From: Methanolobus sp. | GTDB lineage: Archaea; Halobacteriota; Methanosarcinia; Methanosarcinales; Methanosarcinaceae | DNA length: 64,000 nt | Direction: 5' to 3' | Assembly (NCBI RefSeq): GCF_016278385.1 | Contig: NZ_JADQBY010000003.1 | Span: forward strand, 641 to 64,640 | In this document: positions 21,613 through 34,221 of the stretch, piece by piece | How the letters are laid out: every line of letters starts with the position of its first letter | Numbering within the stretch: position 1 is the stretch's first letter | Notes under the pieces: generated by a model | Database searches by the model: none | Told to the model about the DNA's origin: nothing | What the model saw: the letters and a program-made list of their open reading frames with translations, nothing else | Position numbers and translations under genes: made by a program

Positions 21613-21792
21613 ACAATGGACCCCGGATGATTAGGGACTGTTGAGACTCATAATACAAATCTTTTCCATATAAGTACCTGTCATTCAGAGCCTGCTGGCT
21701 CGACCGGATTGTAAGCCACATTGACTTATTTTTTGGTTATCCCTTAATTGCAAAAAATCAAAAAAATAAGATTCTGTATAGAAGCATGATAA

Positions 21793-21921: not shown

Positions 21922-22048
21922 TGAATATCACATCCTCAGGATCATTGAATTATCTGTTAATATGTTTGATACCGCCTTTTTATCTATGGAAGTAAAAAAC
22001 TAATCGATATTGTAATTTAATGGATGTTGAATGAATAAAAAGAAGTAA

Positions 22049-22063
22049 AGTACATCAGCCGGG
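22049..22063. repeat. attL core AGTACATCAGCCGGG
   Basis: Identical to 34148-34162. It lies 48 nt upstream of the integrase ATG. Confidence 0.8.
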
Positions 22064-22110
22064 TGTATATAACGAAAGTTTATACACCTAAACCACATAT
22101 TAAAGAATAT

Positions 22111-23310
22111 ATGACTCGCAATGTGGACGATGTACACGCTTTTGATACTGGTTTTTTAAAAGCAATGGAAAGGTTGGACGAACTCGATACCTCCGAAGAA
22201 AACAAGGCCATTGTTAAGAAGTTCATCAAAAGCTGCAGGCTGGACGGCCTGGCAAAAAGTACCCTTACCCACTACACCAACCAGTTGAAGAGAATGATTC
22301 AAAGGCTCCCGGAAAGTGGTTTTGAAGGCACAATTGACAAACTCGATGAAGATGCTTTCTACGACTTCATCATATACCTGGAAGATAAGGCGCAACTGTC
22401 ACACAATGAGATCCGGAATTACAAGAAGGTCGTGAGGAAGCTCTACAGACACATATATGGCGACAATGTGCCCAGGTGGGTAGAGAAGATCAAATTAGGG
22501 ACCGTAGAAACACATGTGCAGCCTCAGGACCTGCCTGAAAAGGATATGATAGACAAGATGATCAAGGTCTGCACGAATGCCCGAAATAGGGCCCTTGTGG
22601 CAACCTTCTATGACGGTGGGTTCCGTCCTGGGGCACTAATCTCCTGCAGGGTTGGAAATGTCGAGTCAAATGATTACGGATCAATCGTATATCTCTCAAA
22701 AACATCGAGATCAAAGAAAACCACACCGGCAAAGGGAATACCTCTCACATGGTCTTCAGGTTACCTGCAGCAATGGTTAGCCGTGCATCCTCTCCGGGAC
22801 GACCCCGAAGCGCCTCTGTGGGTTACTCTTGACAAGAACCATACTGCAATGAGTTACAAGACGTTCCGCGTAACCATACAGAAGATAGCAAAGGACGCAG
22901 GTATCAAGGACTTCTATCCTTACCTGTTGCGGCACAAGGCAATAACCGATTGGATCCTGCAGGGGTTCAATGAACAGACAATTAACCACCGTGCAGGATG
23001 GTCAAAGGGCAGCACACAGATGTATAAGGTCTATGGCAATTTTACGGACCAGGAAATGAATGATGTGGTCTATGAGAAGTATGGCCTTAAGAAGGATGAT
23101 AAGAAGCAGGTAACATTGAGCAATTGCCCACGTTGTCACAACATTCTCCGGCCCGAGGATAAGTTCTGCTCACAGTGTTCCCTTGTCTTGGACCACCAAG
23201 CACTCGATGAGATCGGCAAATATGAGGCCAGGATTCCGGAGATCTTGCAGTTGGTGATGAGGTCGGAAGAGGCAAGAAAACTGCTAGCTAAGATGGGTGA
23301 AAAAGAGTAA
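22111..23310 (+). CDS. int: tyrosine recombinase/integrase with a C-terminal zinc ribbon
   Basis: N-terminal SAM-like domain. Catalytic region ARNRALVATFYDGGFRPGAL...YLLRHKAITDW...GWSKGSTQMYKVYGNF. C-terminal CPRCHNILRPEDKFCSQC. The ORF-track GTG at 22063 sits inside att, so the ATG at 22111 is more likely. Confidence 0.9.
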   Translation: MTRNVDDVHAFDTGFLKAMERLDELDTSEENKAIVKKFIKSCRLDGLAKSTLTHYTNQLKRMIQRLPESGFEGTIDKLDEDAFYDFIIYLEDKAQLSHNEIRNYKKVVRKLYRHIYGDNVPRWVEKIKLGTVETHVQPQDLPEKDMIDKMIKVCTNARNRALVATFYDGGFRPGALISCRVGNVESNDYGSIVYLSKTSRSKKTTPAKGIPLTWSSGYLQQWLAVHPLRDDPEAPLWVTLDKNHTAMSYKTFRVTIQKIAKDAGIKDFYPYLLRHKAITDWILQGFNEQTINHRAGWSKGSTQMYKVYGNFTDQEMNDVVYEKYGLKKDDKKQVTLSNCPRCHNILRPEDKFCSQCSLVLDHQALDEIGKYEARIPEILQLVMRSEEARKLLAKMGEKE

Positions 23311-23329
23311 AGTAAAAATGATGCAGGCA

Positions 23330-23710
23330 TCAGGCAACTACAGCTAAAGATTCAGACCCTACCGGCAAGTTCATGGAGTTGAGTGCAGAGGCCTGTATAA
23401 CATGTGGAGTGGGGGCATTCCTTTTCAAGACACTAAAAACTAGTTCCACTCTAATCATCTTTTTAGAAATTTTAACATTCATATTTAGTGCTTTATAGTT
23501 TTTAACATCATATTTACTGATGCCGAATTTATCAGATACTTCGAGAATTTCCACACCCATTATAGAATTCTCTTCAGAGATATCTATGACAATCCCATCT
23601 AAGTCGATAGATGATTTATACTTCATCCCTTTAGAATACGCAAAGAAGCTATCATTTTGCATATCATAGTCAGCAGCATCTCCTTTTATTTTAATTCTGG
23701 TCTTGCCCAT
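23330..23710 (-). CDS. DUF2283-like protein (antitoxin-position partner)
   Basis: DYDMQNDSFFAY...DLDGIVIDISEENSIMGVEILEVS matches the DUF2283 YD..D...lD.d..G.lvGIEIl.aS pattern. It overlaps the upstream gene by 20 nt. Confidence 0.55.
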   Translation of the reverse strand: MGKTRIKIKGDAADYDMQNDSFFAYSKGMKYKSSIDLDGIVIDISEENSIMGVEILEVSDKFGISKYDVKNYKALNMNVKISKKMIRVELVFSVLKRNAPTPHVIQASALNSMNLPVGSESLAVVA

Positions 23711-24026
23711 CTGCTCTCACCCTCTTTCTTGATGCTTCTTTAAAACATGTTACCAACGAGAATTCTATAGGATTAACTTTTTTTATGCCAATGATTATGG
23801 TAAGGTCGTAGTCTTCATTATAGCGATACAAGACTTTAAACTTTCCCGTGAATTGCTCTAATATTCCAACTGGAGTACAATCGAATATTTTGGTGTATAC
23901 TTCTTTAATAAAATCTTCACCAAATCGGACTTTCATCCTCTCACGAAAGTGTTGTGTTTCATAGATATTATCTACCTTGATAGTAGATAGATATTGTCCA
24001 AAGGTGTAGATATCCATTTTTTCCAT
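23691..24026 (-). CDS. DUF4258-like small protein (toxin-position partner)
   Basis: ETQHFRERMKVRFG fits the H..eRm..R motif. About 110 aa, placed upstream of and overlapping a DUF2283 gene. The ATG at 24026 is preferred over the TTG at 24041. Confidence 0.45.
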   Translation of the reverse strand: MEKMDIYTFGQYLSTIKVDNIYETQHFRERMKVRFGEDFIKEVYTKIFDCTPVGILEQFTGKFKVLYRYNEDYDLTIIIGIKKVNPIEFSLVTCFKEASRKRVRADGQDQN

Positions 24027-24284
24027 ATAGTAACACCACAATACTCTCAGCGATTAGAAACATCTAAATCCGCCATACTATAAAAATTTAGTAGAATAAG
24101 TTAAAGACCTCAAAGAATATCTGTGGGGAAGGCGGTAGAGATGTGTGATTCGTGGGGTTGGTTGGGGGTGGATAAAAAAGGAATCACACACCTATATTTT
24201 ATTAATAATATTAAAATATAAAAATGTAGGTATTTTTACGGACCATAGAAGCTCTTTTATGGGAATTAAATCAAACGGGAGTGG

Positions 24285-25040
24285 TTATTTATCTAATTCA
24301 GCATCATCAAAGAAGACCACATATCTGCATCGACACCATCCGGATGGACCATCTCTTGTCTTGGTGGTGCAATCTGGATTAGGGATGGGCATTGTCTCGA
24401 GGGCCTCGTCAATCGTTAATACCTTACCATTGTTCTTGGCACATGCTTCACATGGACCAGGGGAGGAGATCTTGACCATTTCGACCCCCTCTTTGCGATA
24501 TTTAACCAATCGCATCTTTTCCGATTCTTGCTTTAGTCGAATGAAGTCTCTTCCTTCCCGGTACAATATTAATGACATTATCCATAACGTGTTTCTAATA
24601 GTGTCGATATCCTTTTTCTCGATGGCATTGTCATTTAGATTCTTGACCATCGTCCAAAGAACATCGACTGGCCCTGTCTTCTCTCCGTGCTCCTCTTTCA
24701 GATGTTTCCGCGTATTAACGTAATCATCTTGTGTGATGTTATAATATTCCAATCCTTTCAGTTGCTCGGCGACGAAGGCCACATCATCGGCTTCTTCTTC
24801 GGTCATTAACACCTTTTCTTCACCGATCATTGGCTTTCTAACGCGAATATAATTACTACAGTGGGGACACTTTTTCTTACCCTTTGGCATCTGTTCAAGT
24901 TCTGTATTACAGTAAGGACAGATAGGTGAGGGGCTTTCTTGGTCACCCGTGTGTTCGGGCAATTCGTCTTTAATGATCTCGGCTATTACCTGGCTACTCT
25001 CTTTTGAAGAAGGCCGTTTCAAGAAGTCAAACATCCCCAT
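24285..25040 (-). CDS. zinc-ribbon protein of unknown function
   Basis: N-terminal CPYCNTELEQMPKGKKKCPHC ribbon, a central helical region, and C-terminal CEACAKNNGKVLTIDEA...PIPNPDC...GWCRCRY. The C-terminal part weakly recalls the C..C..GK....P.HPNCRC end of Mu-F/SPP1-gp7-type proteins. Confidence 0.55.
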   Translation of the reverse strand: MGMFDFLKRPSSKESSQVIAEIIKDELPEHTGDQESPSPICPYCNTELEQMPKGKKKCPHCSNYIRVRKPMIGEEKVLMTEEEADDVAFVAEQLKGLEYYNITQDDYVNTRKHLKEEHGEKTGPVDVLWTMVKNLNDNAIEKKDIDTIRNTLWIMSLILYREGRDFIRLKQESEKMRLVKYRKEGVEMVKISSPGPCEACAKNNGKVLTIDEALETMPIPNPDCTTKTRDGPSGWCRCRYVVFFDDAELDK

Positions 25041-25171
25041 ATTTTAACGTCAAATCTAATTAGATTTCAACTTTGTTATTTGTTGCTGGGAAAAGGAAAT
25101 TGTTCAATGGTGTCCTGGAAAATCCACAAGGCCACAATGGCCCGAACCGGATACCATTGTAACCACAGCTC

Positions 25172-25501
25172 CTACTTCTTTTCGGATTGGCTAGTTGTTT
25201 CTTTTTGGCGTGCTTCCCACGAGTTGTTAATAATGTACGCCAGCGCGTCGTTTACCGTTTTGAGATTGAGCTGTTGCATAATGTATTCCATTTTTTTAAA
25301 TGCTTGATCAGTCAGGAAGATTGGTTCTTTCCTTCCGTCTCCATAGTTCAGCATGACTATATTTTCTATTCCGAAATTAGATAGCTGTTTGACACAGAAT
25401 TCTAAAGCGTGGCTGCGGCTTGAAAATATTTTTTCATCGACCATCCTGTCAAGCCATTTGACAAGATCATCGTCCATAGATACACTGAATCGTTCTTTCA
25501 T
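25172..25501 (-). CDS. ribbon-helix-helix (CopG/NikR-N-like) regulator with a C-terminal extension
   Basis: MKERFSVSMDDDLVKWLDRMVDEKIFSSRSHALEFCVKQL has the RHH pattern. It is divergent from the + strand operon. Confidence 0.65.
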   Translation of the reverse strand: MKERFSVSMDDDLVKWLDRMVDEKIFSSRSHALEFCVKQLSNFGIENIVMLNYGDGRKEPIFLTDQAFKKMEYIMQQLNLKTVNDALAYIINNSWEARQKETTSQSEKK

Positions 25502-25589
25502 GAAGTGAATACAATTCGACCAATGATAAACAATTCGATGATAATTTCACCAAACGTAATACTTAAATATAATGCCTGCTTAGATTGGT
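25502..25589. promoter_or_regulatory. divergent promoter/operator region of the element
   Basis: Direct repeats ACAATTCGA at 25511-25519 and 25530-25538. TATA-like TTAAATATAA at 25563-25572. RHH genes flank it on both sides. Confidence 0.4.
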
Positions 25590-25745
25590 ATGATGATTAC
25601 ACCAAATGTAACACACCGAATGACAGTTTCGCTCACAGAGGATGTACACGACGCCTTGAAAAGGGTAATCGATGCGCGAGAATGTGATAATTATTCACAG
25701 GCGATACGCAAAGCTGTGAGGGTAGCGTTTATAGAAAAGAAGTAA
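25590..25745 (+). CDS. small RHH protein (51 aa, not in ORF track)
   Basis: Own translation: MMITPNVTHRMTVSLTEDVHDALKRVIDARECDNYSQAIRKAVRVAFIEKK*. The beta-strand/helix/helix pattern is typical of Arc/CopG. An internal start at 25620 is possible. Confidence 0.55.
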   Translation: MMITPNVTHRMTVSLTEDVHDALKRVIDARECDNYSQAIRKAVRVAFIEKK

Positions 25746-25865
25746 TGCATTAAGGGACCCCAGGACCAAGGCCCCAGAGATCCACGTAATGACTCGCAAT
25801 CAATTATTGTGTTTCTCTGGCTTTAAAGGTTCTGGTCTCGGGTGTCCCTCCGGAGATCAGAGAAC

Positions 25866-25988
25866 ATGAGAAACCAATGGATATGTATGGATTGTGGAAA
25901 GATGGTATTCTTCCCAAGTGTAGACCCGGAAACAAGGCTTGTCGTGTGCACCTTCTGCAGACAACCAGCTCTTGAGGAGATCCCCTAG
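25866..25988 (+). CDS. 40-aa zinc-ribbon micro-protein (not in ORF track)
   Basis: Own translation: MRNQWICMDCGKMVFFPSVDPETRLVVCTFCRQPALEEIP*, with CxxC...CxxC. Confidence 0.45.
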   Translation: MRNQWICMDCGKMVFFPSVDPETRLVVCTFCRQPALEEIP

Positions 25989-26023
25989 GAACAGATCAGA
26001 GCTCAGGCGGTGATGGCGTGAAG

Positions 26024-26194
26024 ATGATTCTTGTGCCGTCCTGCAGGCGGTGTTTCTATCTTTCTAGCAATGATAGGGGAGAGTATTGTGATAATGAGGA
26101 TATCCAAGGAAGTCCCTTCATATCGAAAGATGATTATCTCAAATGCGGGATTCTCCCAAACTGTCCATTGAAAAACGCTCCGGAGGAAATCTAA
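26024..26194 (+). CDS. 56-aa Cys-rich micro-protein (not in ORF track)
   Basis: Own translation: MILVPSCRRCFYLSSNDRGEYCDNEDIQGSPFISKDDYLKCGILPNCPLKNAPEEI*. Its stop abuts the GTG of the next ORF. Confidence 0.35.
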   Translation: MILVPSCRRCFYLSSNDRGEYCDNEDIQGSPFISKDDYLKCGILPNCPLKNAPEEI

Positions 26195-26491
26195 GTGTAC
26201 ACCTGCATTAAGGATCCTGAAACCGGCAAGAGACTCTACGCGGATATTGTTGTGGGAGCACCCGCTGTAGAAAAATTTAGGTTGGAATATGCAGTCGCCC
26301 GGGATGTCGCTACTGAGGACCAATTCGTGGAGGATATCATCCGAGAGCTCCGAGGCGTCAAAATCAGGGACCGCGCTCTGCTCTCTGCCATACTCAAAGA
26401 TGCCTTCGGGGTATCGGCAGATGAGTGCCTTGAGCTCGTCCAGGCAGTTGAGGAAAGAATGATGGGAAGAATGCCAGGGGTGGGGATATGA
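26195..26491 (+). CDS. hypothetical protein
   Basis: 98 aa with balanced composition and an ATGA overlap with the next ORF. Preferred over the antisense 177-aa ORF 26003-26536. Confidence 0.5.
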   Translation: MYTCIKDPETGKRLYADIVVGAPAVEKFRLEYAVARDVATEDQFVEDIIRELRGVKIRDRALLSAILKDAFGVSADECLELVQAVEERMMGRMPGVGI

Positions 26492-26814
26492 CCCCTCGTC
26501 CACGTGCCCACTGTCCGGAATGTGATTCACTGACAATCAATCACGTGGTAAAGGAAGAGAAGTGGAAGTGTCACCAATGCGGATGGGCTGGCTCTGAGCC
26601 GGTGATGAGGTTGCAGGAGTCCTGGGAGATCTCCCGGGGTGAAAGCCACCACTGGCTTAAGCAACTCTATGATCTTCACAGAGAACATCCTGAGTATACC
26701 AGGAAGGACCTCCGGAAGTATGGCATGGTCGGTCAGGGTACAGTTGATCGATACTGGAACAGGTTCGTGGCCGGCAAGGTCCACGTGATAAGGCCATGGG
26801 GTGATGTGATATGA
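26488..26814 (+). CDS. zinc-ribbon plus helical (HTH-like) protein
   Basis: CPECDS...KCHQCGW ribbon followed by a basic helical C-terminus. Overlapping starts and stops at both ends. Confidence 0.55.
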   Translation: MTPRPRAHCPECDSLTINHVVKEEKWKCHQCGWAGSEPVMRLQESWEISRGESHHWLKQLYDLHREHPEYTRKDLRKYGMVGQGTVDRYWNRFVAGKVHVIRPWGDVI

Positions 26815-26897
26815 AGATGAAGCAAAGATGCCCTGTGTGCGGGAGGATCCTTCCGCATAACCTGCAGTGTCGCAGTTGTGGGAGGAGGAGAACGTGA
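26811..26897 (+). CDS. 28-aa zinc-ribbon micro-protein (not in ORF track)
   Basis: Own translation: MKMKQRCPVCGRILPHNLQCRSCGRRRT*. The ATG overlaps the upstream TGA. Confidence 0.35.
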   Translation: MKMKQRCPVCGRILPHNLQCRSCGRRRT

Positions 26898-27145
26898 ACA
26901 TGCCAGGCGCCTGTATCCATGGGACGGGGGTCCTTATGAACTCAGATACGACGAATACGCAGGAGTGTTCACAGAGGATGAGCTGCAGGTCATTACAGTA
27001 GACTATTCAAAAAGAAGGAGGTAGCTAACCAGAGACCGATTATTTATAAATCATGAGCTCGACAATAGAATTGTGAAGAAAAATTCAACTTTTCTTTATA
27101 TACTAGTAGTGAAAAAGTGAACATTACCAGATAAGGAGGCAGTAA

Positions 27146-27277
27146 ATGGCAGCCAAAGGATGGACGAGTATCCTTGTCAAAGAATCCACCAGAGATAAGA
27201 TCAAGCGAGAAGCCGATGTCGCGGGGATGAAGATGTATGCTCTGATAGATCAGAGATTCCCGGAGAAAACCAATTGA
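27146..27277 (+). CDS. 43-aa RHH-like micro-protein (not in ORF track)
   Basis: Own translation: MAAKGWTSILVKESTRDKIKREADVAGMKMYALIDQRFPEKTN*. AAGGAGG at 27133-27139 sits 6 nt upstream, with TATA-like boxes at 27041 and 27096. Confidence 0.45.
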   Translation: MAAKGWTSILVKESTRDKIKREADVAGMKMYALIDQRFPEKTN

Positions 27278-27629
27278 TAACAGAAGCGGGCATTTCATTA
27301 CCAATTCTGATAGCAGAAACAGTATTAAACTAAAGGAATTATATTAACAAAACGATAAGAAGGAAGCCACAGGTGTGCGCTAACACGCCTGCAGCTCGAA
27401 ACATGATTATACTCCAAGTATAACCCACATTTCAGACCATGTGGTATTACGCGGTAGGATATTATAATACTTTTTGTATGAACATTTGTTCTAACAAAAG
27501 GTATGCTGTTTTGAGCTTGTGGCCTTCCGGGAAGCGCCGCATGAATTTACCCGAAAACAGAAACACAATAGAAGTTGGGGGCAGTGCCCCCCTGAATTGC
27601 TATATGACCACCTGCACCACTAGGAGGCC

Positions 27630-27836
27630 ATGTTATACATGAACTCCATGGGTTATATTCAAAGCGGTGGTTCAAGCTCTGACGCTGATCTTCAGAGCCT
27701 GCGTGAGCATCCCACTATAAGGGATTTTGCCTCGATGCCGGAGGATATTTACCGTTTAGTGACGGCGACTAATCCGACGTTGAAGCTTTTTGTGGACCTG
27801 GCCAAGGAGATCTGCGCGGGGGGTGTTGAAGAATAA
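27630..27836 (+). CDS. hypothetical protein
   Basis: 68-aa ORF. GGAGG at 27623-27627 favours the second ATG at 27639. No motif was recognised. Confidence 0.4.
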   Translation: MLYMNSMGYIQSGGSSSDADLQSLREHPTIRDFASMPEDIYRLVTATNPTLKLFVDLAKEICAGGVEE

Positions 27837-27895
27837 CCCCTCCTGTTAATATCGACAACATTCCTGCAGAACTTAAGGAATGTCCACAGTGGGTC

Positions 27896-30580
27896 ATGTG
27901 GAAATTTGTGCAGAAACCAGGTAAGAAAAAACCAGATAAAGTTTTATTCACGGTTGAAAACAAACCAGCAGACTCCACAGCCCCCGGGACCTGGAACATA
28001 TTTGAAGCTTGCATTGAAGCTTTCGACCCAAAGATATTCAATGGTATCGGTTTTGTTTTCTCCTATTATGACCCATATATGGGAGTTGATTGGGATAATA
28101 TCAGGAACCCCGAAACCGGAGAATGGGAGAACGGAACACTTGAAGAGATCAAGCGGTTTGCAAGCTATGCGGAGATCTCCCAGAGTGGAACGGGTGCACA
28201 TGTTATTTGCAAGGGAGAGAAACCGGGGAGCAAGTGCAGGCGTGGAAACTATGAGATGTACACACACGATCGCTTCTTTGTGGTTACAGGAAACCACCTA
28301 GAAGGAACGCCAGATACCATAAACGAAGCACCGCCTGAAGCTATCAAGGCTGTTTATGATAAGATAGATCCACACCGTGAGGCATGCAAGTCCCCGCGAA
28401 ATGGGAGTAAGGAGAGCTGTAACCAGGAGGATGAAAAGGTCATTTCTCTGTTGATGGGCTCATCTATTGCAGATACATTCGAATCTCTGTGGGATGGAAG
28501 CACAGCCGGATATCCTTCAAACAGCGAGGCAGATTATGAACTTGCTAAACTGATAGCCTTCTACACTCAAGATGAAGTCCGGATTGAAAGACTCATGAGA
28601 CAGTCGGGCCTTGCTCGCAGCAAGTGGGATACTCACCCGACTTATCTTAAGGCTACCATTGGGAACGCCATAAGCAGTTTGACAAAAAGATATACACCCC
28701 CCTCAGTGGAAGGAAGAGAGCAAAGCGAACAACAAGCCACGAACGATGAAGAAACCGACCCGCTGATTAAAGAGGCTGCCGACATGATAGCCAGCCGAGA
28801 GAATCCTGTTCAGTTCATTCTTGATACTCACCAGTCTCTGCATGTGGGGGACCTCGAACTTGCTAAGACCTTACTTGTATCCGTTGGCGTTCAGTCGGTT
28901 CTAAACGCGGACGGCATCCAGCCCAAGGTGAGCGGGGAGTCTGGTAAAGGAAAGACACACTGCTGTAAAGCCATGGCTCACCTTGTGCCACCTAAATGGA
29001 TTTTTGAAACAACACTATCAGACAAGGCTATTTTTTACATGAAGGGGCTGAAGGATGGCAGTATCATCTTCTGTGATGATATTGATCTATCTGAAACACT
29101 GGAAGGCGTGATCAAGCGTGCGACCTCCAACTTTCAGACGGGGACCACATACACCACCTTGGACATTAAGCGAAGAGAAGAAACAAAGAGGATACCCTCC
29201 AGGATATCTTGGTGGCTCACTTCGGTGGACGATGACCAAAGCCTGCAGCTGTTAAACAGACAGTTCGGCGGGGGCGTGGACGAGTCAGAGGAACAGGATA
29301 GAAAGGTTGTGGAGTTCCTGTCAAAAAAGGCCGCATCTGGTGAAGTTGGCCTACCCCTGAACGATAGCGTACTGATCTGCAGAGAGATCCTCCAGGACAT
29401 AAAGTCAAGCAATTTCATTGTGAAAATCCCCTTTGTAGAAAGGATTACATGGAGAGATACCAGGAATCGCAGAAACTATTCTATCTTCCTGGATATCTTG
29501 AGGGGATATACAGTTCTTCGACATAGACAAAGGCAGAAAGACCAGGAAGGCGCCCTAATAGCAGAAGTCCAAGACTTCAACGATGCTAAGGCACTGTATA
29601 CTAGGAGGGCGGAGAACCAGGGACTAAAGCTAAGTGATGCGGAGATGCGGCTATGTATAGTACTTGCTGGCAGGGGAGAAGCTACCCGGGAAGAAATTGC
29701 CAAGGCTCTGGGTAAATCCGTGGGCAGAGTATCACATCTAATTTATGGAAAGGATAGAAACAAAGATGCGGGCCTCCTCCATAAAGTTGAGGGATTCTAT
29801 GTTGAAAAAAGAACAGTTGAGAATTCTGTAGGCCACAAAACACAGAAGACATATCTAAAACTCGATGGATTCGACGCCCTTGGAATGTTTGGCTCGGTTG
29901 TGTCTCTTGATGTGGGTGATACGCACTGTTACACGACTGATACACACACTGATACTCCAATAATCAGTAACAATACATACACTGATACCACTGATACCAA
30001 TATAGATAGAGTACAGCAAAAAAAACCCAATTGTGTGAAAAATGAGAAATCTGATTCTTTACTTACACAAAAGTCAAACCAGTGTATCAATGGTATCAGT
30101 AGTTCGCAAGATAGTGAAAAGCTAGGTAACAGTGGTAGTAATATTGCTGGTAACAGTGCATCAGCACCCCCGCTAGATATCGGTAATACCGGAAACACCG
30201 CTATGCAGGAACACTTGTTGGCTTGGGCTCCGCGGTGGGAATCTTCCCATAAAAAGAGCATCAATCGCCTCAACGTGACCCATGTAGCAATGGAATACTG
30301 CAAGAGGTATAGTGTGCCTTCTGACAAGTTCACTGAAGTTACTGATACCATTAGACGGTATGCTAAGATACCCACCGAAAGACCGATGTCTGGTCCATTG
30401 AATGTAGAAGGTGAACAAACACAAGCCTATTGTGCCGACTGTGGATCCACCAGTGCCCCTAACACTTCCACTCTCATAAATGGCCAGGTAGAGCATCGTT
30501 GCCATACCTGCTATCAAAAGTATATCAACCGGGCATCTGAACACCCGAATCAGCCTGAACCTGTGGAGGCCCCGCTATGA
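27896..30580 (+). CDS. replication protein: PrimPol-type primase-polymerase + PriCT-like domain + P-loop (SF3-like) helicase + wHTH/Zn-binding tail
   Basis: PQWVMWKF...KKKPDKVLF...STAPGTWNIFEAC...SQSGTGAHVICKG...YEMYTHDRFFVVTGN (primase-polymerase). ADYELAKLIAFYT...SKWDTHPTYLKATI (PriCT-like). SGESGKGKTH Walker A with IIFCDDID Walker B. C-terminal CADCGS...HRCHTC. Confidence 0.85.
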   Translation: MWKFVQKPGKKKPDKVLFTVENKPADSTAPGTWNIFEACIEAFDPKIFNGIGFVFSYYDPYMGVDWDNIRNPETGEWENGTLEEIKRFASYAEISQSGTGAHVICKGEKPGSKCRRGNYEMYTHDRFFVVTGNHLEGTPDTINEAPPEAIKAVYDKIDPHREACKSPRNGSKESCNQEDEKVISLLMGSSIADTFESLWDGSTAGYPSNSEADYELAKLIAFYTQDEVRIERLMRQSGLARSKWDTHPTYLKATIGNAISSLTKRYTPPSVEGREQSEQQATNDEETDPLIKEAADMIASRENPVQFILDTHQSLHVGDLELAKTLLVSVGVQSVLNADGIQPKVSGESGKGKTHCCKAMAHLVPPKWIFETTLSDKAIFYMKGLKDGSIIFCDDIDLSETLEGVIKRATSNFQTGTTYTTLDIKRREETKRIPSRISWWLTSVDDDQSLQLLNRQFGGGVDESEEQDRKVVEFLSKKAASGEVGLPLNDSVLICREILQDIKSSNFIVKIPFVERITWRDTRNRRNYSIFLDILRGYTVLRHRQRQKDQEGALIAEVQDFNDAKALYTRRAENQGLKLSDAEMRLCIVLAGRGEATREEIAKALGKSVGRVSHLIYGKDRNKDAGLLHKVEGFYVEKRTVENSVGHKTQKTYLKLDGFDALGMFGSVVSLDVGDTHCYTTDTHTDTPIISNNTYTDTTDTNIDRVQQKKPNCVKNEKSDSLLTQKSNQCINGISSSQDSEKLGNSGSNIAGNSASAPPLDIGNTGNTAMQEHLLAWAPRWESSHKKSINRLNVTHVAMEYCKRYSVPSDKFTEVTDTIRRYAKIPTERPMSGPLNVEGEQTQAYCADCGSTSAPNTSTLINGQVEHRCHTCYQKYINRASEHPNQPEPVEAPL

Positions 30581-30966
30581 TACCTTCCTGCCTCTACAGT
30601 TCTCCCAGTGAAGCTGGTGGCCCAGAACTCTTGGAAATCAATGCACATTTCATTGTATACTGTGTAGCTTCCCCTGAAGAGCAGGCCATCCTTCTCTACA
30701 AGGTAGACGTGACAGAAAAGGATGTTCTGGGCTTCTATACCTTGGCCGATGTTCCGGATGAGGATCTTGTGCTCGTCCAGATACTGAACGCGGATCTCAA
30801 GTATTGGCTCATATTCTATGGAGTTCCAGAGCCCGGTGGCCTGGAATGGTGGACAGTAGTGGTGAATCACCGTGCAAGACCAATCAAGGAGAAATGTGCA
30901 GCCATGTACTACCGGTACGCTGCGATCAGTGAGGAACTGTTCCCGGGGGAAACGGTGGTATTGTGA
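30577..30966 (+). CDS. hypothetical protein
   Basis: 129 aa with an ATGA overlap with the primase gene and a GTGA overlap downstream. Confidence 0.5.
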   Translation: MIPSCLYSSPSEAGGPELLEINAHFIVYCVASPEEQAILLYKVDVTEKDVLGFYTLADVPDEDLVLVQILNADLKYWLIFYGVPEPGGLEWWTVVVNHRARPIKEKCAAMYYRYAAISEELFPGETVVL

Positions 30967-31202
30967 GAAACGTCCAAGACCTCTCCGCCGAAGAACGTGA
31001 GAAGATCCTGCAGGAAGCAAACCTCAGGTGTTACGGTGAGATAGCCGAGGAGCTGGATATCCCGGTCGGTACAATCAAACGAGTGATTCGAACTCACAAT
31101 GGCAGGATGAAGAGGTATCAATATAGTGATAACTACCCTACTCAGAATAAGCCGTTAAGAACCGAATCACACAAAAAAGAAGCACTAAGAGGCATTAGAT
31201 GA
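30963..31202 (+). CDS. small HTH protein (sigma-70 region-4/LuxR-like helix-turn-helix)
   Basis: LSAEEREKILQEANLRCYGEIAEELDIPVGTIKRVIRTH. Confidence 0.55.
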   Translation: MRNVQDLSAEEREKILQEANLRCYGEIAEELDIPVGTIKRVIRTHNGRMKRYQYSDNYPTQNKPLRTESHKKEALRGIR

Positions 31203-31471
31203 CCGAAAAAGACGACATTGACACCCAAACTTTAAAAAAAATGTCAAGAGAACAGCTCCTTGAAGTTTCAACCAGGATGATAACGGATATTGAGCAGCGC
31301 GTGAGAGGTGACCGCTTCCGGGTCAGAGAAGGAGATGAGACTAAACTGAAATTCTTAAGAGTGTTGGTTTCAGCTATTCAAGCACATTCATCCATTCTTA
31401 AAGATGACGATCTCGAAGACATTAAGCGCAGACTCGAACACATCGAAGCAGCCCAGGGGGGACAGATATGA
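31199..31471 (+). CDS. hypothetical helical protein
   Basis: 90 aa, charged and helical, with overlapping start and stop on both sides. Confidence 0.5.
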   Translation: MTEKDDIDTQTLKKMSREQLLEVSTRMITDIEQRVRGDRFRVREGDETKLKFLRVLVSAIQAHSSILKDDDLEDIKRRLEHIEAAQGGQI

Positions 31472-32112
31472 GCACAGTAACACTTAGCAAACAACTCGAT
31501 AAAGTAGTATCAAACCTCACAGTTGAGGATCAAGCAGTTTATACCAGGAAAGTAGGAATCGATCTATTTAAAGAGATGAAAGCAGGCAACATCCCAGAGG
31601 ATGAACTTGAACATCGTTTTGATGTGGTTTTATCCAAGATCACTGATACGATGGAGTACGTTGATGCGGTTCGTTTTATCGAGGCCCTGCACAAAGATGC
31701 TATCCGAGTAGCCATCGAAGCATACAAGGAAATGGACCGTAATCACAAGATAGCAGTGATCTGTGGCATAGATGCCACTCGCCGTTTCCTTGAGGAGATA
31801 CTCAACCACGAGGCCACACAGAGCGCATGGCATGAGGACAGGCTATATCATGCTTATCCTGCCGACAAGGCCGTGAGACTCGTAGAAGAAGATATCAAAG
31901 AACGCAAGGAGGCAATGCTCCCAATATTCCAGGGACTTAAGCAATCTGAACAAGAAAGGAATGAACTGCTTAACCCTAAATTATGGGAAGGTCTGGGCGG
32001 AGTCCCTGAAATAGAACCATATCAGACCTTGCTTACTAAGAGAGTTCGGCGGATATGCCCCGATTCTCGGTTATTGCCTGCCAGTTTTGCAGATGCCGAT
32101 GTAAGTGTGTGA
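31468..32112 (+). CDS. hypothetical protein
   Basis: 214 aa, translationally coupled to the upstream ORF. No motif was recognised. Confidence 0.5.
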   Translation: MSTVTLSKQLDKVVSNLTVEDQAVYTRKVGIDLFKEMKAGNIPEDELEHRFDVVLSKITDTMEYVDAVRFIEALHKDAIRVAIEAYKEMDRNHKIAVICGIDATRRFLEEILNHEATQSAWHEDRLYHAYPADKAVRLVEEDIKERKEAMLPIFQGLKQSEQERNELLNPKLWEGLGGVPEIEPYQTLLTKRVRRICPDSRLLPASFADADVSV

Positions 32113-32169
32113 GCTCAATTCCTGGGCTCTCTGACTTTTTAAGAGCCATGTTCACTGGGAGGCAAAAAC

Positions 32170-32682
32170 ATGTTTCTCTGTCATTCCTATCATGAAGACA
32201 GCTACGGTGTCATTTGCACCAACAAATGTGAACATCGCTTGACCTGTCAAAAGCCAAAGAGGTCTCTTATGATCCCCGCGGTGAGCATCGTGTGCGGGTC
32301 AAAGGGAACGGGCGAGGAAGCCGGTGTTAAGGCCGAGTGTTTCAGCATCGAGGAAACACAACCAGATGCCTATATCAATGATCTCATATTTTACGGCCAT
32401 GATTCTTCTGATGTGCTTGAGATCACCTGTGCAAAACCGGGGTGTAATAACCGATTCCACATGACGGAATCACAGTGGAACAAGTTCAACGATGTGTATT
32501 ATCGGAAGTACGGCCGGTTCATGCTTCCTTACTGTTCTAAACAATGCCAAGAAGAACACCTTCGCCTGTTGCTGCCTGGTAAGAAAATTGTGTTAGTTTT
32601 TGTGGATATCGGGAAGGACAGAAAGTGCAACACATCGGTTGTTTTCGATGACCCACTGCATCACGCGGTGGTAACCCAATAA
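32170..32682 (+). CDS. Cys-rich hypothetical protein
   Basis: 170 aa with several Cys pairs (CTNKCEHRLTC, CAKPGCNN, YCSKQC). Confidence 0.45.
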   Translation: MFLCHSYHEDSYGVICTNKCEHRLTCQKPKRSLMIPAVSIVCGSKGTGEEAGVKAECFSIEETQPDAYINDLIFYGHDSSDVLEITCAKPGCNNRFHMTESQWNKFNDVYYRKYGRFMLPYCSKQCQEEHLRLLLPGKKIVLVFVDIGKDRKCNTSVVFDDPLHHAVVTQ

Positions 32683-32725
32683 TTTCAACCTTCCTTTATA
32701 TAGGTGGTACGTACCACACGTAGGT

Positions 32726-32878
32726 ATGTATGACCGAAACCAGTGGGCTCAGGTCTTGCTTCCCAAGTCCATCCGTAGAGACATACGCGAGATCGCACGC
32801 TCCCAGAAGATGAAAAACTGGGAAGTCGTCGGTCTTGCCCTCCAGGAACTAAAATCAAAGCAGGTGACCACCGTATGA
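32726..32878 (+). CDS. 50-aa RHH-like micro-protein (not in ORF track)
   Basis: Own translation: MYDRNQWAQVLLPKSIRRDIREIARSQKMKNWEVVGLALQELKSKQVTTV*. The stop overlaps the ATG at 32875. Confidence 0.45.
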   Translation: MYDRNQWAQVLLPKSIRRDIREIARSQKMKNWEVVGLALQELKSKQVTTV

Positions 32879-33288
32879 ATATGAACGCAAAAGCACAGCC
32901 CGTCCTCGAAAGGATCAACCAGTTTACACAAGACTTCAACGTCCTGTTCAAAGAAGCAGTTGAAAGCACTCGCCAAGAGATCCGGGGCCAGGAACACAGA
33001 GAGGCTATGGAAAGGCTCTATGGTCCACGTGGCATTCTCTCGAGTTACCAGACACTCAAAGTCAACAGAGAGAACGCCCGGTTTGTTTCAAAGATTTTCA
33101 AATTAATGGAATCTCTCGATGATGTGAAGGCCGACAGCACAGAGACAATCCATTCACGTGGAAAAGAGCACGGGTTCACTGTGGAAGAAAGCATGTGTAT
33201 ATACAACATGAACCTGTATGCCAAGGCCCTCAGCAATCTCGGTGCACAGAAAGACAAGATGGTCGAGATCATCTTGGCAGAGGAGTGA
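32875..33288 (+). CDS. hypothetical protein, paralog of 33328-33744
   Basis: The shared C-terminal block GKEHGF(x)...Y(x)YAKA appears in both proteins. Confidence 0.5.
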   Translation: MNMNAKAQPVLERINQFTQDFNVLFKEAVESTRQEIRGQEHREAMERLYGPRGILSSYQTLKVNRENARFVSKIFKLMESLDDVKADSTETIHSRGKEHGFTVEESMCIYNMNLYAKALSNLGAQKDKMVEIILAEE

Positions 33289-33327
33289 ACAGGGACATCC
33301 CTACTGATTTCAATTCGAGGAATTACA

Positions 33328-33744
33328 ATGAAAACCAACACCAAAACACTTGAATCAAAGTTCGAGGACTTCAAGAAGGATGTCCTGGCAGAGTATCAGG
33401 AAACTACCCACAAATTCCAGGAAGAGGTCAAAGAAAAAGAATTTATGAAAGGCCTTAAATCTCTCGCGGACACCCTTCCAGACATCGAGAATCTGCCGAT
33501 CACAAAGACCAATGCGGATACTGTTGTTAACGTGTTCAAGCTCCTGGACCGTTTCCAGAAGAATCCCGACACCTACACTACGAAATGGGATGAGCTTGCA
33601 GTTGAGCTTGCTGGAAAGGAGCACGGCTTTGACAAGAAGATGTCGTACTCACTGTTTTACATGGCCAGGTATGCCAAGGCTCACGAGAGGCTGACATCCA
33701 AGAAGACAGAACTCTACCAGGTCATTACCGGGGTGAATCTGTGA
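33328..33744 (+). CDS. hypothetical protein, paralog of 32875-33288
   Basis: ELAGKEHGFDKKMSYSLFYMARYAKAHERL compared with SRGKEHGFTVEESMCIYNMNLYAKALSNL. Confidence 0.5.
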   Translation: MKTNTKTLESKFEDFKKDVLAEYQETTHKFQEEVKEKEFMKGLKSLADTLPDIENLPITKTNADTVVNVFKLLDRFQKNPDTYTTKWDELAVELAGKEHGFDKKMSYSLFYMARYAKAHERLTSKKTELYQVITGVNL

Positions 33745-33920
33745 GCAACGACGAAATCATCCAGCGAGCCGTCAAAAATGCTCTTGATGACTTCCACCAG
33801 CAGAAGGGGGAAGCGCCTATAAGGTCCGAGGTGTCAAAGCACTTAAGAACCGATGAATACGTAGCTCCCGAAGGACTCGGTGTGTCTGGGATCACCGTGA
33901 CTGTGGATAAAAAACACTGA
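33741..33920 (+). CDS. 59-aa hypothetical protein (just below the ORF-track cutoff)
   Basis: The GTG overlaps the upstream TGA. Own translation: VSNDEIIQRAVKNALDDFHQQKGEAPIRSEVSKHLRTDEYVAPEGLGVSGITVTVDKKH*. Confidence 0.35.
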   Translation: MSNDEIIQRAVKNALDDFHQQKGEAPIRSEVSKHLRTDEYVAPEGLGVSGITVTVDKKH

Positions 33921-33932
33921 ACCAAGGCAGCG

Positions 33933-33967
33933 GAGGCACCCGAAAGCGTGGTGGCAGGGGGTGCCTC
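33933..33967 (+). terminator. 9-bp GC-rich hairpin closing the element's + strand operon
   Basis: GAGGCACCC-(17 nt)-GGGTGCCTC, 13 nt after the last stop codon. The downstream T-tract is weak. Confidence 0.4.
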
Positions 33968-34147
33968 AAAACTATTTCTTAACTGTTTTTCAGGTAATTG
34001 TGATATAATGGGTCTATATCCTGCCGGTTCTATATTTAATTCTACATCTGCTCGACAAGTATCGAGAAAACTATAGTACCCTCTTTTCGGATCTTAAAAA
34101 ATAAGGAAAATCACCATCCATAAAGGACGGTGTATAAAAAATTTATT

Positions 34148-34162
34148 AGTACATCAGCCGGG
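34148..34162. repeat. attR core AGTACATCAGCCGGG
   Basis: Identical to 22049-22063. It is the reverse complement of the tRNA-Gly 3' end (…CCCGGCTGATGTA). Confidence 0.8.
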
Positions 34163-34221
34163 ATTCGAACCCGGGTTCGAGCGTTGGCAACGCCCGGTGA
34201 TGACCGCTACACTACTGATGT
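34150..34221 (-). tRNA. tRNA-Gly(GCC)
   Basis: Manual cloverleaf on the reverse complement: ACATCAG/CTGATGT acceptor, anticodon loop TTGCCAA, T-arm CCGGG-TTCGAAT-CCCGG. 72 nt with no encoded CCA. Confidence 0.8.

Follow-up and report, generated by a model that had tools for sequence, protein, structure and literature searches.

This locus raises the question of what kind of mobile element has inserted into the 3' end of a tRNA-Gly(GCC) gene of Methanolobus, a plasmid-like replicon or a virus. The window, that is, the whole 64,000-nucleotide stretch of DNA analysed here, belongs to a Methanolobus metagenome contig (ENA ERZ27277067 k141_19620; JGI 3300032098), and the element occupies positions 22049-34162 of it. 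The element is a discrete insertion whose presence or absence is polymorphic within one Methanolobus species, and it is probably a plasmid-like 'cryptic integrated element' (CIE) and not a virus. It is a new, undescribed member of a family within a well-known kind of archaeal mobile element. The features that define its borders are the following:

22049-22063, no strand: core of the left attachment (att) site, attL; exact 15-bp direct repeat AGTACATCAGCCGGG and breakpoint of the empty-site alignments.
22062-22088, no strand: integrase-proximal att arm GGTGTATATAACGAAAGTTTATACACC, read from the sequence; homologous in the related elements of contig L003 and locus L007, whose cores differ.
22111-23310, plus strand: tyrosine integrase of 399 amino acids (aa), intact after integration (Pfam PF00589, 4e-13; PF13495 (SAM_4), 6e-8; PHROG 1 integrase, 2e-23).
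34148-34162, no strand: attR core, the second copy of AGTACATCAGCCGGG, which makes up the 3' end of tRNA-Gly.
34149-34221, minus strand: tRNA-Gly(GCC), the integration target, intact after insertion (ARAGORN; Rfam tRNA, 58 bits).

A preliminary description of this DNA had placed a 15-mer at the two positions listed above, with the right copy at the 3' end of tRNA-Gly(GCC) and the left one upstream of a tyrosine integrase gene that reads inward. All of this was confirmed: AGTACATCAGCCGGG occurs exactly twice in the window, the tRNA was recovered by both ARAGORN and Rfam, and 47 nt separate the end of the attL core from the ATG of the integrase (22111). No third copy with one mismatch or less was found in the window (shuffled sequences lead to an expectation of 0), and the pair is the sole exact repeat of such kind within 18-38 kb. 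In terms of tRNA structure, the attR core takes in the T-stem (3' half), the acceptor stem (3' strand) and the discriminator base, and it extends 1-2 nt past that base. The tRNA-Gly gene is followed by tRNA-Phe and tRNA-Val (ARAGORN, Rfam), and none of the three encodes CCA. The length of the insertion is 12,099 bp. The G+C content, described previously as higher than that of the flanks, is indeed so in the integrase gene and between 25.7 and 34.1 kb (0.43-0.55 versus about 0.37-0.41 in the flanks), but the leftward module at 23.3-25.7 kb (0.34-0.42) is host-like.

It is the comparison with empty sites, and not the statistics of the repeat, that excludes a chance repeat. Three conspecific metagenome contigs from other samples (JGI 3300042902, 3300042534 and 3300044482), L171, L172 and L175, match the window from 41462 down to 34148 at 99.6-99.7% identity and then run directly into 22063-21790, the two alignments overlapping by exactly the 15-bp core. 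The tRNA-Gly gene is thus joined to the left flank with both breakpoints on the 15-mer, as had been anticipated for relatives that lack the element. An empty site is also present in Methanolobus tindarius DSM 2278, where the element-deleted window is collinear across the junction, the genes for LonB, the 148-aa protein, tRNA-Val/Phe/Gly and MatE being contiguous; the core of this species differs by 1 base, belonging to a compensated variant of the acceptor stem. The flanking 148-aa gene is present on 12 contigs: four are occupied, three distinct ones (from five samples) are empty, and the rest end within the tRNA cluster. An integrated element bounded by the 15-bp repeat in tRNA-Gly is therefore proven at both the strain and the species level, and its site-specific integration and its mobility are demonstrated.

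The surroundings of the empty site show further differences between strains. In an element-free conspecific strain (L171, JGI 3300042902 Ga0455840_0000053; compare L008), the tRNA-Gly flank and MatE are separated by a different segment, about 14 kb long, with genes for a PAS/GAF histidine kinase, FilR1, corrinoid methyltransferases, a RACo-like activase and a thermosome subunit. Its breakpoint corresponds to about position 21669 of the window, 380 bp from attL, and this second indel at the hotspot beside the tRNA is unrelated to the element. Next to attB (window 21950-22048 against L171:7316-7420) the identity is 93%, with a short TTATAATATCAAA-like insertion and a few base changes, and on the tRNA side it is 99.6%, which indicates different recent histories for the two flanks.

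The integrase is composed of a SAM-like N-terminal domain, the catalytic domain and a C-terminal zinc ribbon, and its alignment to Pyrococcus abyssi XerA (4A8E) showed the catalytic Arg, the (Y)xxRH motif, the Trp and the Tyr in place. The zinc ribbon (residues 334-356, CPRCHNILRPEDKFCSQC) is an extra feature followed by a helical tail; such a ribbon is unusual among tyrosine recombinases. In archaeal integrases of the SSV (partitioning) type, attP lies inside the int gene and integration splits the gene. Here the int reading frame is unsplit and starts outside the core, and the enzyme is of the non-partitioning (pNOB8-like) type. Within the att arm at 22062-22088, GGTGTATA and TATACACC form an inverted repeat of 8 bp, and GGTGTATA recurs a third time on the opposite arm, at 34129-34136. 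The arm at 22062-22088 is a candidate binding site for the integrase or a candidate int promoter.

Contig L003 carries a sister element of about 11.2 kb, whose replication protein (Rep) is 68% identical and which is integrated in a different gene, tRNA-Arg(CCG), its ends being a 13-bp exact repeat, CGGACCTGCCGGG. The gene order is the same (att, integrase, DUF2283, MJ0788, ..., 68-aa open reading frame (ORF), Rep, 129-aa ORF, helix-turn-helix (HTH) protein, ..., DUF8136). A third member, at locus L007 of M. chelungpuianus, carries a type I restriction-modification system as cargo. The integrase is 66% identical to that of L003 and 53% to that of L007. Although the att cores of the three elements differ, the arms on the integrase side are homologous (core-T[G/C]TAT...AAAGT.TATA..CCTA...ATGACTCGCAATGT, the last ATG being the start codon of the integrase), and so are those on the opposite side (AGGAC..TGTA.A). 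These elements form a small family with homologous att arms and integrases and different tRNA cores.

The replication protein, Rep, is deposited as 'hypothetical protein [Methanolobus sp.]':

27830-30580, plus strand: Rep; canonical ATG at 27896 (894-aa form), likely true start ATA at 27830.

Residue numbers refer to the 894-aa form. The protein consists of a primase-polymerase (PrimPol) of the NrS-1 type with a helix-bundle domain (residues 1 to about 300), an MCM-like AAA+ ATPase, a winged helix, a low-complexity tail and a C-terminal zinc finger. The N-terminal domain matches PF22763 (8e-16) and the PHROG DNA primase (1e-67), and in profile comparisons with the Protein Data Bank (PDB) the first 300 residues match the NrS-1 primase-polymerase (6K9A, 1e-46) and 7OLA (5e-53), with the catalytic residues D65, D67 and H102 conserved. 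Beyond about residue 300 the sequence profile gave no match in the PDB, nor did Pfam MCM match. The ATPase part is covered by the precomputed Pfam family PF27228 ('MTBMA_p00010_2nd'), which in database relatives is paired with DnaG/Toprim, PF09250 or PF22548 primase domains and therefore belongs to a modular replicase.

An AlphaFold model of residues 281-745, built on a 66-sequence alignment (pLDDT 83, pTM 0.79), was compared with the PDB by Foldseek, and the top 50 matches were all MCM helicases (E about 1e-8, probability 1.0), with 313-370 aligned columns, TM-scores of 0.41-0.46 and about 13% identity, the C-terminal winged helix included. Across the 66 Rep relatives the Walker A (GESGKGKT) and Walker B (IIFCDD) motifs are conserved, as is an invariant Arg in LLNRQF, a motif that we take to resemble the SRFD arginine finger of MCM. 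A tblastn comparison further aligned the ATPase domain with the Rep of plasmid pMTBMA4/pME2001 (25.6% identity over 242 aa, E 4e-6). The model and these matches point to a diverged MCM-like AAA+ module, distantly related to the pME2001/pMTBMA4 Rep, and helicase activity is predicted for it. Of the 894-aa PrimPol/helicase announced in the preliminary description, the PrimPol-ATPase combination was borne out, but the helicase part appears MCM-like and not a classical superfamily 3 (SF3) enzyme, and the start is probably 66 nt further upstream. There, ATA 27830 overlaps the TAA stop of the 68-aa ORF (ATAA), and the 22 codons upstream of ATG 27896 encode (I)TPPVNIDNIPAELKECPQWV, with 7 synonymous and 2 non-synonymous changes with respect to L003. 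These codons are homologous to the ATGA-coupled start MTAPVN of a related virus Rep (described below) and to the N-termini of P0012 and P0032. The true start is thus probably ATA 27830, a non-canonical start that would be reached by translational coupling.

The PF27228 domain is widespread in Methanomicrobia (loci L010-L089), often lying 2-3 kb from a related integrase beside tRNA-Thr or tRNA-Leu in Methanospirillum, Methanoregula and Methanolinea, and Methanospirillum lacunae Ki8-1 has at least 7 copies. Such a distribution suggests a large superfamily of integrative elements that is still undescribed.

No genes for capsid, portal, terminase, packaging ATPase or conjugation were detected in the Pfam, PHROGs, NCBIfam and PADLOC scans. 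Besides Rep no second P-loop protein appeared in the profile scans, and apart from Rep, the integrase and a 251-aa protein all ORFs are of 214 aa or less. No transmembrane segment was found in any ORF (maximum Kyte-Doolittle value of a 19-mer, 1.29); spindle-shaped, pleomorphic, droplet-shaped and internal-membrane icosahedral virions are therefore excluded. Two candidates for virion proteins were inspected more closely. The 251-aa protein had been considered as a MuF-like head protein and was rejected as evidence for a virion gene; its family consists of zinc-ribbon proteins of about 220 aa (1,610 representatives), of which 4 of 49 weakly match Phage_Mu_F. The paralogous 137- and 138-aa proteins were considered as rod-type nucleoproteins of a capsid, which is unsupported, though the AlphaFold model is weak: the 137-aa protein was modeled as all-helical, with a long N-terminal helix followed by a small bundle (pLDDT 68), and found no significant fold match in the PDB or BFVD (best E 1.7 and 1.3). 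Searches of IMG/VR gave no relatives of the 214-aa, 129-aa and 137-aa ORFs. PADLOC gave nothing credible as defence cargo. The previous statement that capsid, terminase, portal and membrane or spike proteins could not be recognised is thus upheld by four profile collections, the hydrophobicity scan and one structure test.

A link to a virus was seen in the replication module. Two IMG/VR contigs, L090 (IMGVR_UViG_3300034521_000267) and L091 (3300034759_000237), 99.99% identical to each other, encode RecT, the large terminase (TerL), MuF, a cement protein, an HK97/encapsulin-like capsid protein and a PrimPol-MCM-like Rep, and they represent a head-tailed virus, presumably of Methanolobus. The Rep region that they share with the element gave no match in the GenBank phage collection, and the Rep ATPase domain was not found in phage records. 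In the comparison of the two genes (window 27896-30580 against L090:7967-10741), the virus Rep (924 aa) matches residues 271-892 of the element Rep with 87% protein identity and 90.5% DNA identity (window 28766-30580), whereas its N-terminus is a different primase, PF09250 in place of PF22763. Modules were thus swapped recently inside the Rep gene, between the element and the tailed virus. The 68-aa ORF (68%), the 79-aa HTH protein (71%) and the non-coding motif at 25745-25855 are also common to both. Beyond the replication module, k-mer and protein comparisons between the element and L090 revealed no common structural gene, small terminase or cos/pac-like word.

The alternative left by the preliminary description, either an integrative plasmid or a virus with uncharacterised structural proteins, still stands, and the evidence leans to the plasmid-like side. 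This reading is favoured because the integrase, the att repeats at a tRNA gene, a primase-helicase of the type found in mobile genetic elements (MGE) and the other, unassigned genes fit the class described in PMC6563490, because the ATPase domain is the same as that of the Rep of the 4.4-kb plasmid pMTBMA4/pME2001, and because the scans described above detected neither virion nor conjugation genes. Beyond integration and mobility, we infer the following mechanism. The tyrosine recombinase would join the 15-bp attP core with the identical 3' end of tRNA-Gly, rebuilding the tRNA; the excised 12.1-kb circle would be replicated by its own Rep, whose NrS-1-type primase-polymerase would make the primer, and the MCM-like AAA+ ring with its winged helix may recognise and unwind the origin, probably the motif at 25745-25855 upstream of the replication operon. 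Regulation would likely be exerted by the divergent ribbon-helix-helix (RHH) protein together with small zinc-ribbon and HTH proteins, and the DUF2283/MJ0788 pair may stabilise the element as a likely addiction module. With no transfer or virion machinery encoded by the element itself, horizontal spread would rely on other means, for example vesicles, DNA uptake or a co-resident virus.

Several points weigh against the plasmid-like reading. No attP circle, whose junction would read TTTATT-AGTACATCAGCCGGG-TGTATATAAC, was found: a scan of metagenome_contigs with one degenerate pattern for attL, attR, attB and attP, which matches the window itself, gave 0 matches, but the window's own attL and attR were missed too since its samples are not in that collection, which makes the scan uninformative. 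Contigs of 10-13 kb with a related Rep are fragments or integrated copies and not free circles, and terminal overlaps were seen in only two distant IMG/VR contigs that have the PrimPol domain as common feature. Blastn at the DNA level gave no match in PLSDB, and with it no free plasmid relative there, nor any in INPHARED. The replication module shares about 90% DNA identity with its counterpart in a tailed virus, which links the element to the virus world. The case against a virus is built on negative results and is provisional, as about 15 ORFs have no detectable homologues and the structure check covered 1 of these, with a low-confidence model. The roles proposed for the origin, the regulators and the toxin-antitoxin pair are likewise putative.

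The common replication module could also mean that the element is a satellite of the head-tailed L090-like virus which, like P4, PICI or PICMI, excises, replicates with its own Rep and is packaged in the capsids of the virus. Its integrase, primase-helicase and many small regulators, without structural genes, would suit such a way of life, and so would its size, 12.1 kb being less than half of the virus contig (27.4 kb or longer); the high identity of Rep residues 271-892 to the virus Rep, the other replication-module features in common and the weak likeness of the 251-aa protein to PHROG 'minor head protein' families point in the same direction. Only the replication module is shared, however, with no cos/pac-like DNA and no small terminase, capsid or scaffold gene, so that it is the shared replicon that carries this explanation, and plasmids and viruses commonly exchange replication modules, so that a shared one is no sign of dependence. 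The 251-aa protein is unlike the MuF of the virus, belongs to a large and mostly non-phage family and is absent from the sister element, and no helper provirus was found within the window. We regard a satellite as unlikely; a first archaeal example that depends on a head-tailed virus, with the origin and the helicase part of Rep shared with an L090-like caudovirus, is improbable.

Small archaeal viruses of 10-17 kb that integrate into tRNA genes exist, and a provirus of an undescribed family of this sort, with its capsid protein hidden among the small ORFs (for example the 137/138-aa helical proteins as rod-type nucleoproteins), would account for the 15 or so orphan ORFs and for the duplicated proteins with their long N-terminal helix and small helical bundle; many cryptic integrated elements may indeed be unrecognised viruses (PMC6563490). 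Against it stand the lack of transmembrane proteins, of a packaging ATPase and of any second P-loop protein, the failure of the 137-aa model to match anything in BFVD or in the PDB, which holds the capsid proteins of rod-shaped viruses, the absence from IMG/VR of the three small ORFs tested and the relationship of the Rep ATPase module to that of a plasmid; we consider this explanation to have little likelihood. The replication module, nearly identical to that of a tailed virus, might instead have been left behind in a defective, immobile remnant of a tailed provirus after loss of its structural module. With perfect repeats, an integrase that is intact down to its catalytic residues, ORFs that are all uninterrupted and tightly coupled, a sister element that is equally compact and has the same gene order in another tRNA gene, and 99.6%-identical strains that differ in the presence of the element, such a remnant is very improbable.

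As a plasmid-like integrated element, it can be compared with several known systems. The cryptic integrated elements and integrative plasmids classified for Thaumarchaeota (PMC6563490) have in common with it a tyrosine integrase, flanking att repeats, insertion at a tRNA 3' end, a size below 20 kb, an MGE-type primpol-helicase and other genes of no assigned function, with no hallmark genes of viruses or conjugation. It differs from them in its host, a member of the Methanosarcinales, in its helicase, which appears to be an MCM-like AAA+ of the pME2001 type and not SF3, and in the very short att core of its family (13-15 bp), and it has no sequence relation to the described elements. The closest described architecture to its Rep is that of BcMCM, a fusion of an archaeo-eukaryotic primase (AEP) and MCM from a Bacillus cereus prophage (PMC2715239, PMC3273815), which is also encoded on an integrated mobile element; the element Rep resembles MCM at the fold level only, at the low identity given above and with no Pfam MCM match, its primase is of the NrS-1 type with a helix-bundle domain, its host is an archaeon, and it is known from sequence alone. 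The Rep of pME2001/pMTBMA4 (Methanothermobacter marburgensis; NC_014409, CP006848) also contains the PF27228 ATPase domain and is the replication protein of a small, non-mobilisable archaeal plasmid, but this plasmid is of 4.4 kb and its Rep shows only the distant identity reported above. The primase-polymerase of the deep-sea vent phage NrS-1 (PDB 6K9A, 6A9W, 7RR3) resembles the N-terminal 300 residues of Rep, PF22763 included, but in Rep it is joined to an MCM-like ATPase, and the element that encodes it is archaeal and non-viral.

The combination of integrase, primase-helicase and small regulators with no capsid genes is also that of P4, PICI, PICMI and pSSVx/pSSVi, and, like phage and archaeal satellites, the element is a fraction of the size of the co-occurring virus and has one module in common with it. 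Satellites normally do not share a replicon with their helper, whereas this element does share one with the virus and has neither a packaging determinant nor a morphogenesis gene in common with it. The archaeal satellites described or proposed all depend on spindle-shaped and not on tailed viruses (bioRxiv 10.1101/2025.02.15.638363).

What sets the element apart is its PrimPol-MCM-like replicase, with a recent domain swap, and the retargeting to other tRNA genes within its family. It is a cleanly delimited and recently mobile replicon of a methylotrophic methanogen in which att sites, integrase, candidate origin and replicase have been mapped. Small integrated elements have been proposed as genetic tools in Thaumarchaeota (PMC6563490), and small integrative replicons are raw material for shuttle or integration vectors; a family with retargeted tRNA genes and homologous att arms is in addition useful for work on changes in integrase specificity. 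In Rep a primase-polymerase is fused to a pME2001-type, MCM-like AAA+ module, and its domain swap is a concrete case of plasmid-like elements and viruses of methanogens trading replication modules. Were the element a satellite after all, satellite-helper parasitism would be extended to archaeal tailed viruses, which would be new for archaea.

The remaining genes are arranged in a leftward module and a rightward operon. Those in common with L003 are the integrase, DUF2283, MJ0788, 98-aa, 108-aa and 68-aa ORFs, Rep, the 129-aa ORF, the 79-aa HTH, DUF8136 and a 137-aa protein, and the variable ones are the 251-aa, RHH, 214-aa, 170-aa and 59-aa ORFs. The 4-nt ATGA/GTGA gene overlaps mentioned in the preliminary description are real, and the GGAGG ribosome-binding sites are present at 27133-27139 and 27623-27627. 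The features are:

23330-23710, minus strand: DUF2283 protein of 126 aa, putative antitoxin-like (Pfam PF10049, 5e-9); 68% identical and syntenic in L003.
23691-24041, minus strand: MJ0788-family protein of 111-116 aa, putative toxin-like, its gene overlapping that of DUF2283 (precomputed PF27370); 61% in L003.
24285-25040, minus strand: zinc-ribbon protein of 251 aa, its C-terminal domain being CxxC...P...CxC; variable cargo, not present in L003; weak PHROG 'minor head protein' matches (6e-4, 2e-3).
25172-25501, minus strand: 109-aa RHH (CopG-like) regulator, by weak matches (Pfam RHH_1, 8.5e-4; PHROG transcriptional repressor, 4e-3).
25745-25855, plus strand: about 110 nt of conserved, structured non-coding sequence in which inverted repeats (CCAGAGA...TCTCTGG) are nested around CGCAATCAATTATTGTG.
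25866-25988, plus strand: 40-aa zinc-ribbon ORF (CxxC...CxxC), read from the sequence, first of the rightward operon; 82% nucleotide identity in L003.
26018-26194, plus strand: 58-aa Cys-rich ORF, from the ORF list; no family match.
26195-26491, plus strand: 98-aa core ORF, 48% identical in L003; no family match.
26488-26814, plus strand: 108-aa core ORF with an N-terminal zinc ribbon, 81% in L003; weak zinc-ribbon matches to TFS and PriA.
27146-27277, plus strand: 43-aa ORF preceded by the ribosome-binding site AAGGAGG; 45% identity to an L007 ORF.
27630-27836, plus strand: 68-aa acidic ORF; homologues directly upstream of Rep in L003, L007, L016 and virus L090 (48-68% identity).
30577-30966, plus strand: 129-aa acidic core ORF, its translation coupled to Rep by an ATGA overlap; 73% in L003; no family, PDB or IMG/VR match.
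30963-31202, plus strand: 79-aa basic HTH protein (weak HTH_38 / sigma-70 region 4 matches); 71% to virus L090 and 58% to L003.
31199-31471, plus strand: 90-aa DUF8136 protein (precomputed PF26457); 55% in L003 and 43% in L017.
31468-32112, plus strand: 214-aa ORF, variable cargo; no match in Pfam, PHROGs, NCBIfam, PADLOC, PDB or IMG/VR.
32170-32682, plus strand: 170-aa Cys-rich ORF (11 Cys), variable cargo; no family match.
32726-32878, plus strand: 50-aa basic ORF, from the ORF list, ATGA-coupled to the downstream gene; no family match.
32875-33744, plus strand: a pair of all-alpha paralogues, one of 137 aa (32875-33288) and one of 138 aa (33328-33744), with a common GKEHGF motif.
33741-33920, plus strand: 59-aa ORF, from the ORF list, last of the operon; no family match.

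The overlapping DUF2283 and MJ0788 genes likely constitute a toxin-antitoxin (addiction) module, and the RHH gene is divergent from the rightward operon. The motif at 25745-25855 is 79-82% identical in L003 and virus L090. Its RNA folds into nested hairpins with -45 kcal/mol (z = -3.9) and 25 consensus pairs, 3 of them with compensatory changes, which for three sequences makes the evidence for covariation thin. No Rfam family matched it, and no convincing array of iterons could be seen between 25.5 and 27.9 kb. A scan for further copies gave the same virus only among viral sequences and one match among metagenomes, L180, which was rejected as a chance match inside an oxidoreductase gene. Because it travels with the helicase and winged-helix part of Rep, the motif is a probable replication origin or operon leader. 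The 137- and 138-aa paralogues belong to a tiny family, being 25% identical to each other and 48% and 29%, respectively, to the single copy of L003.

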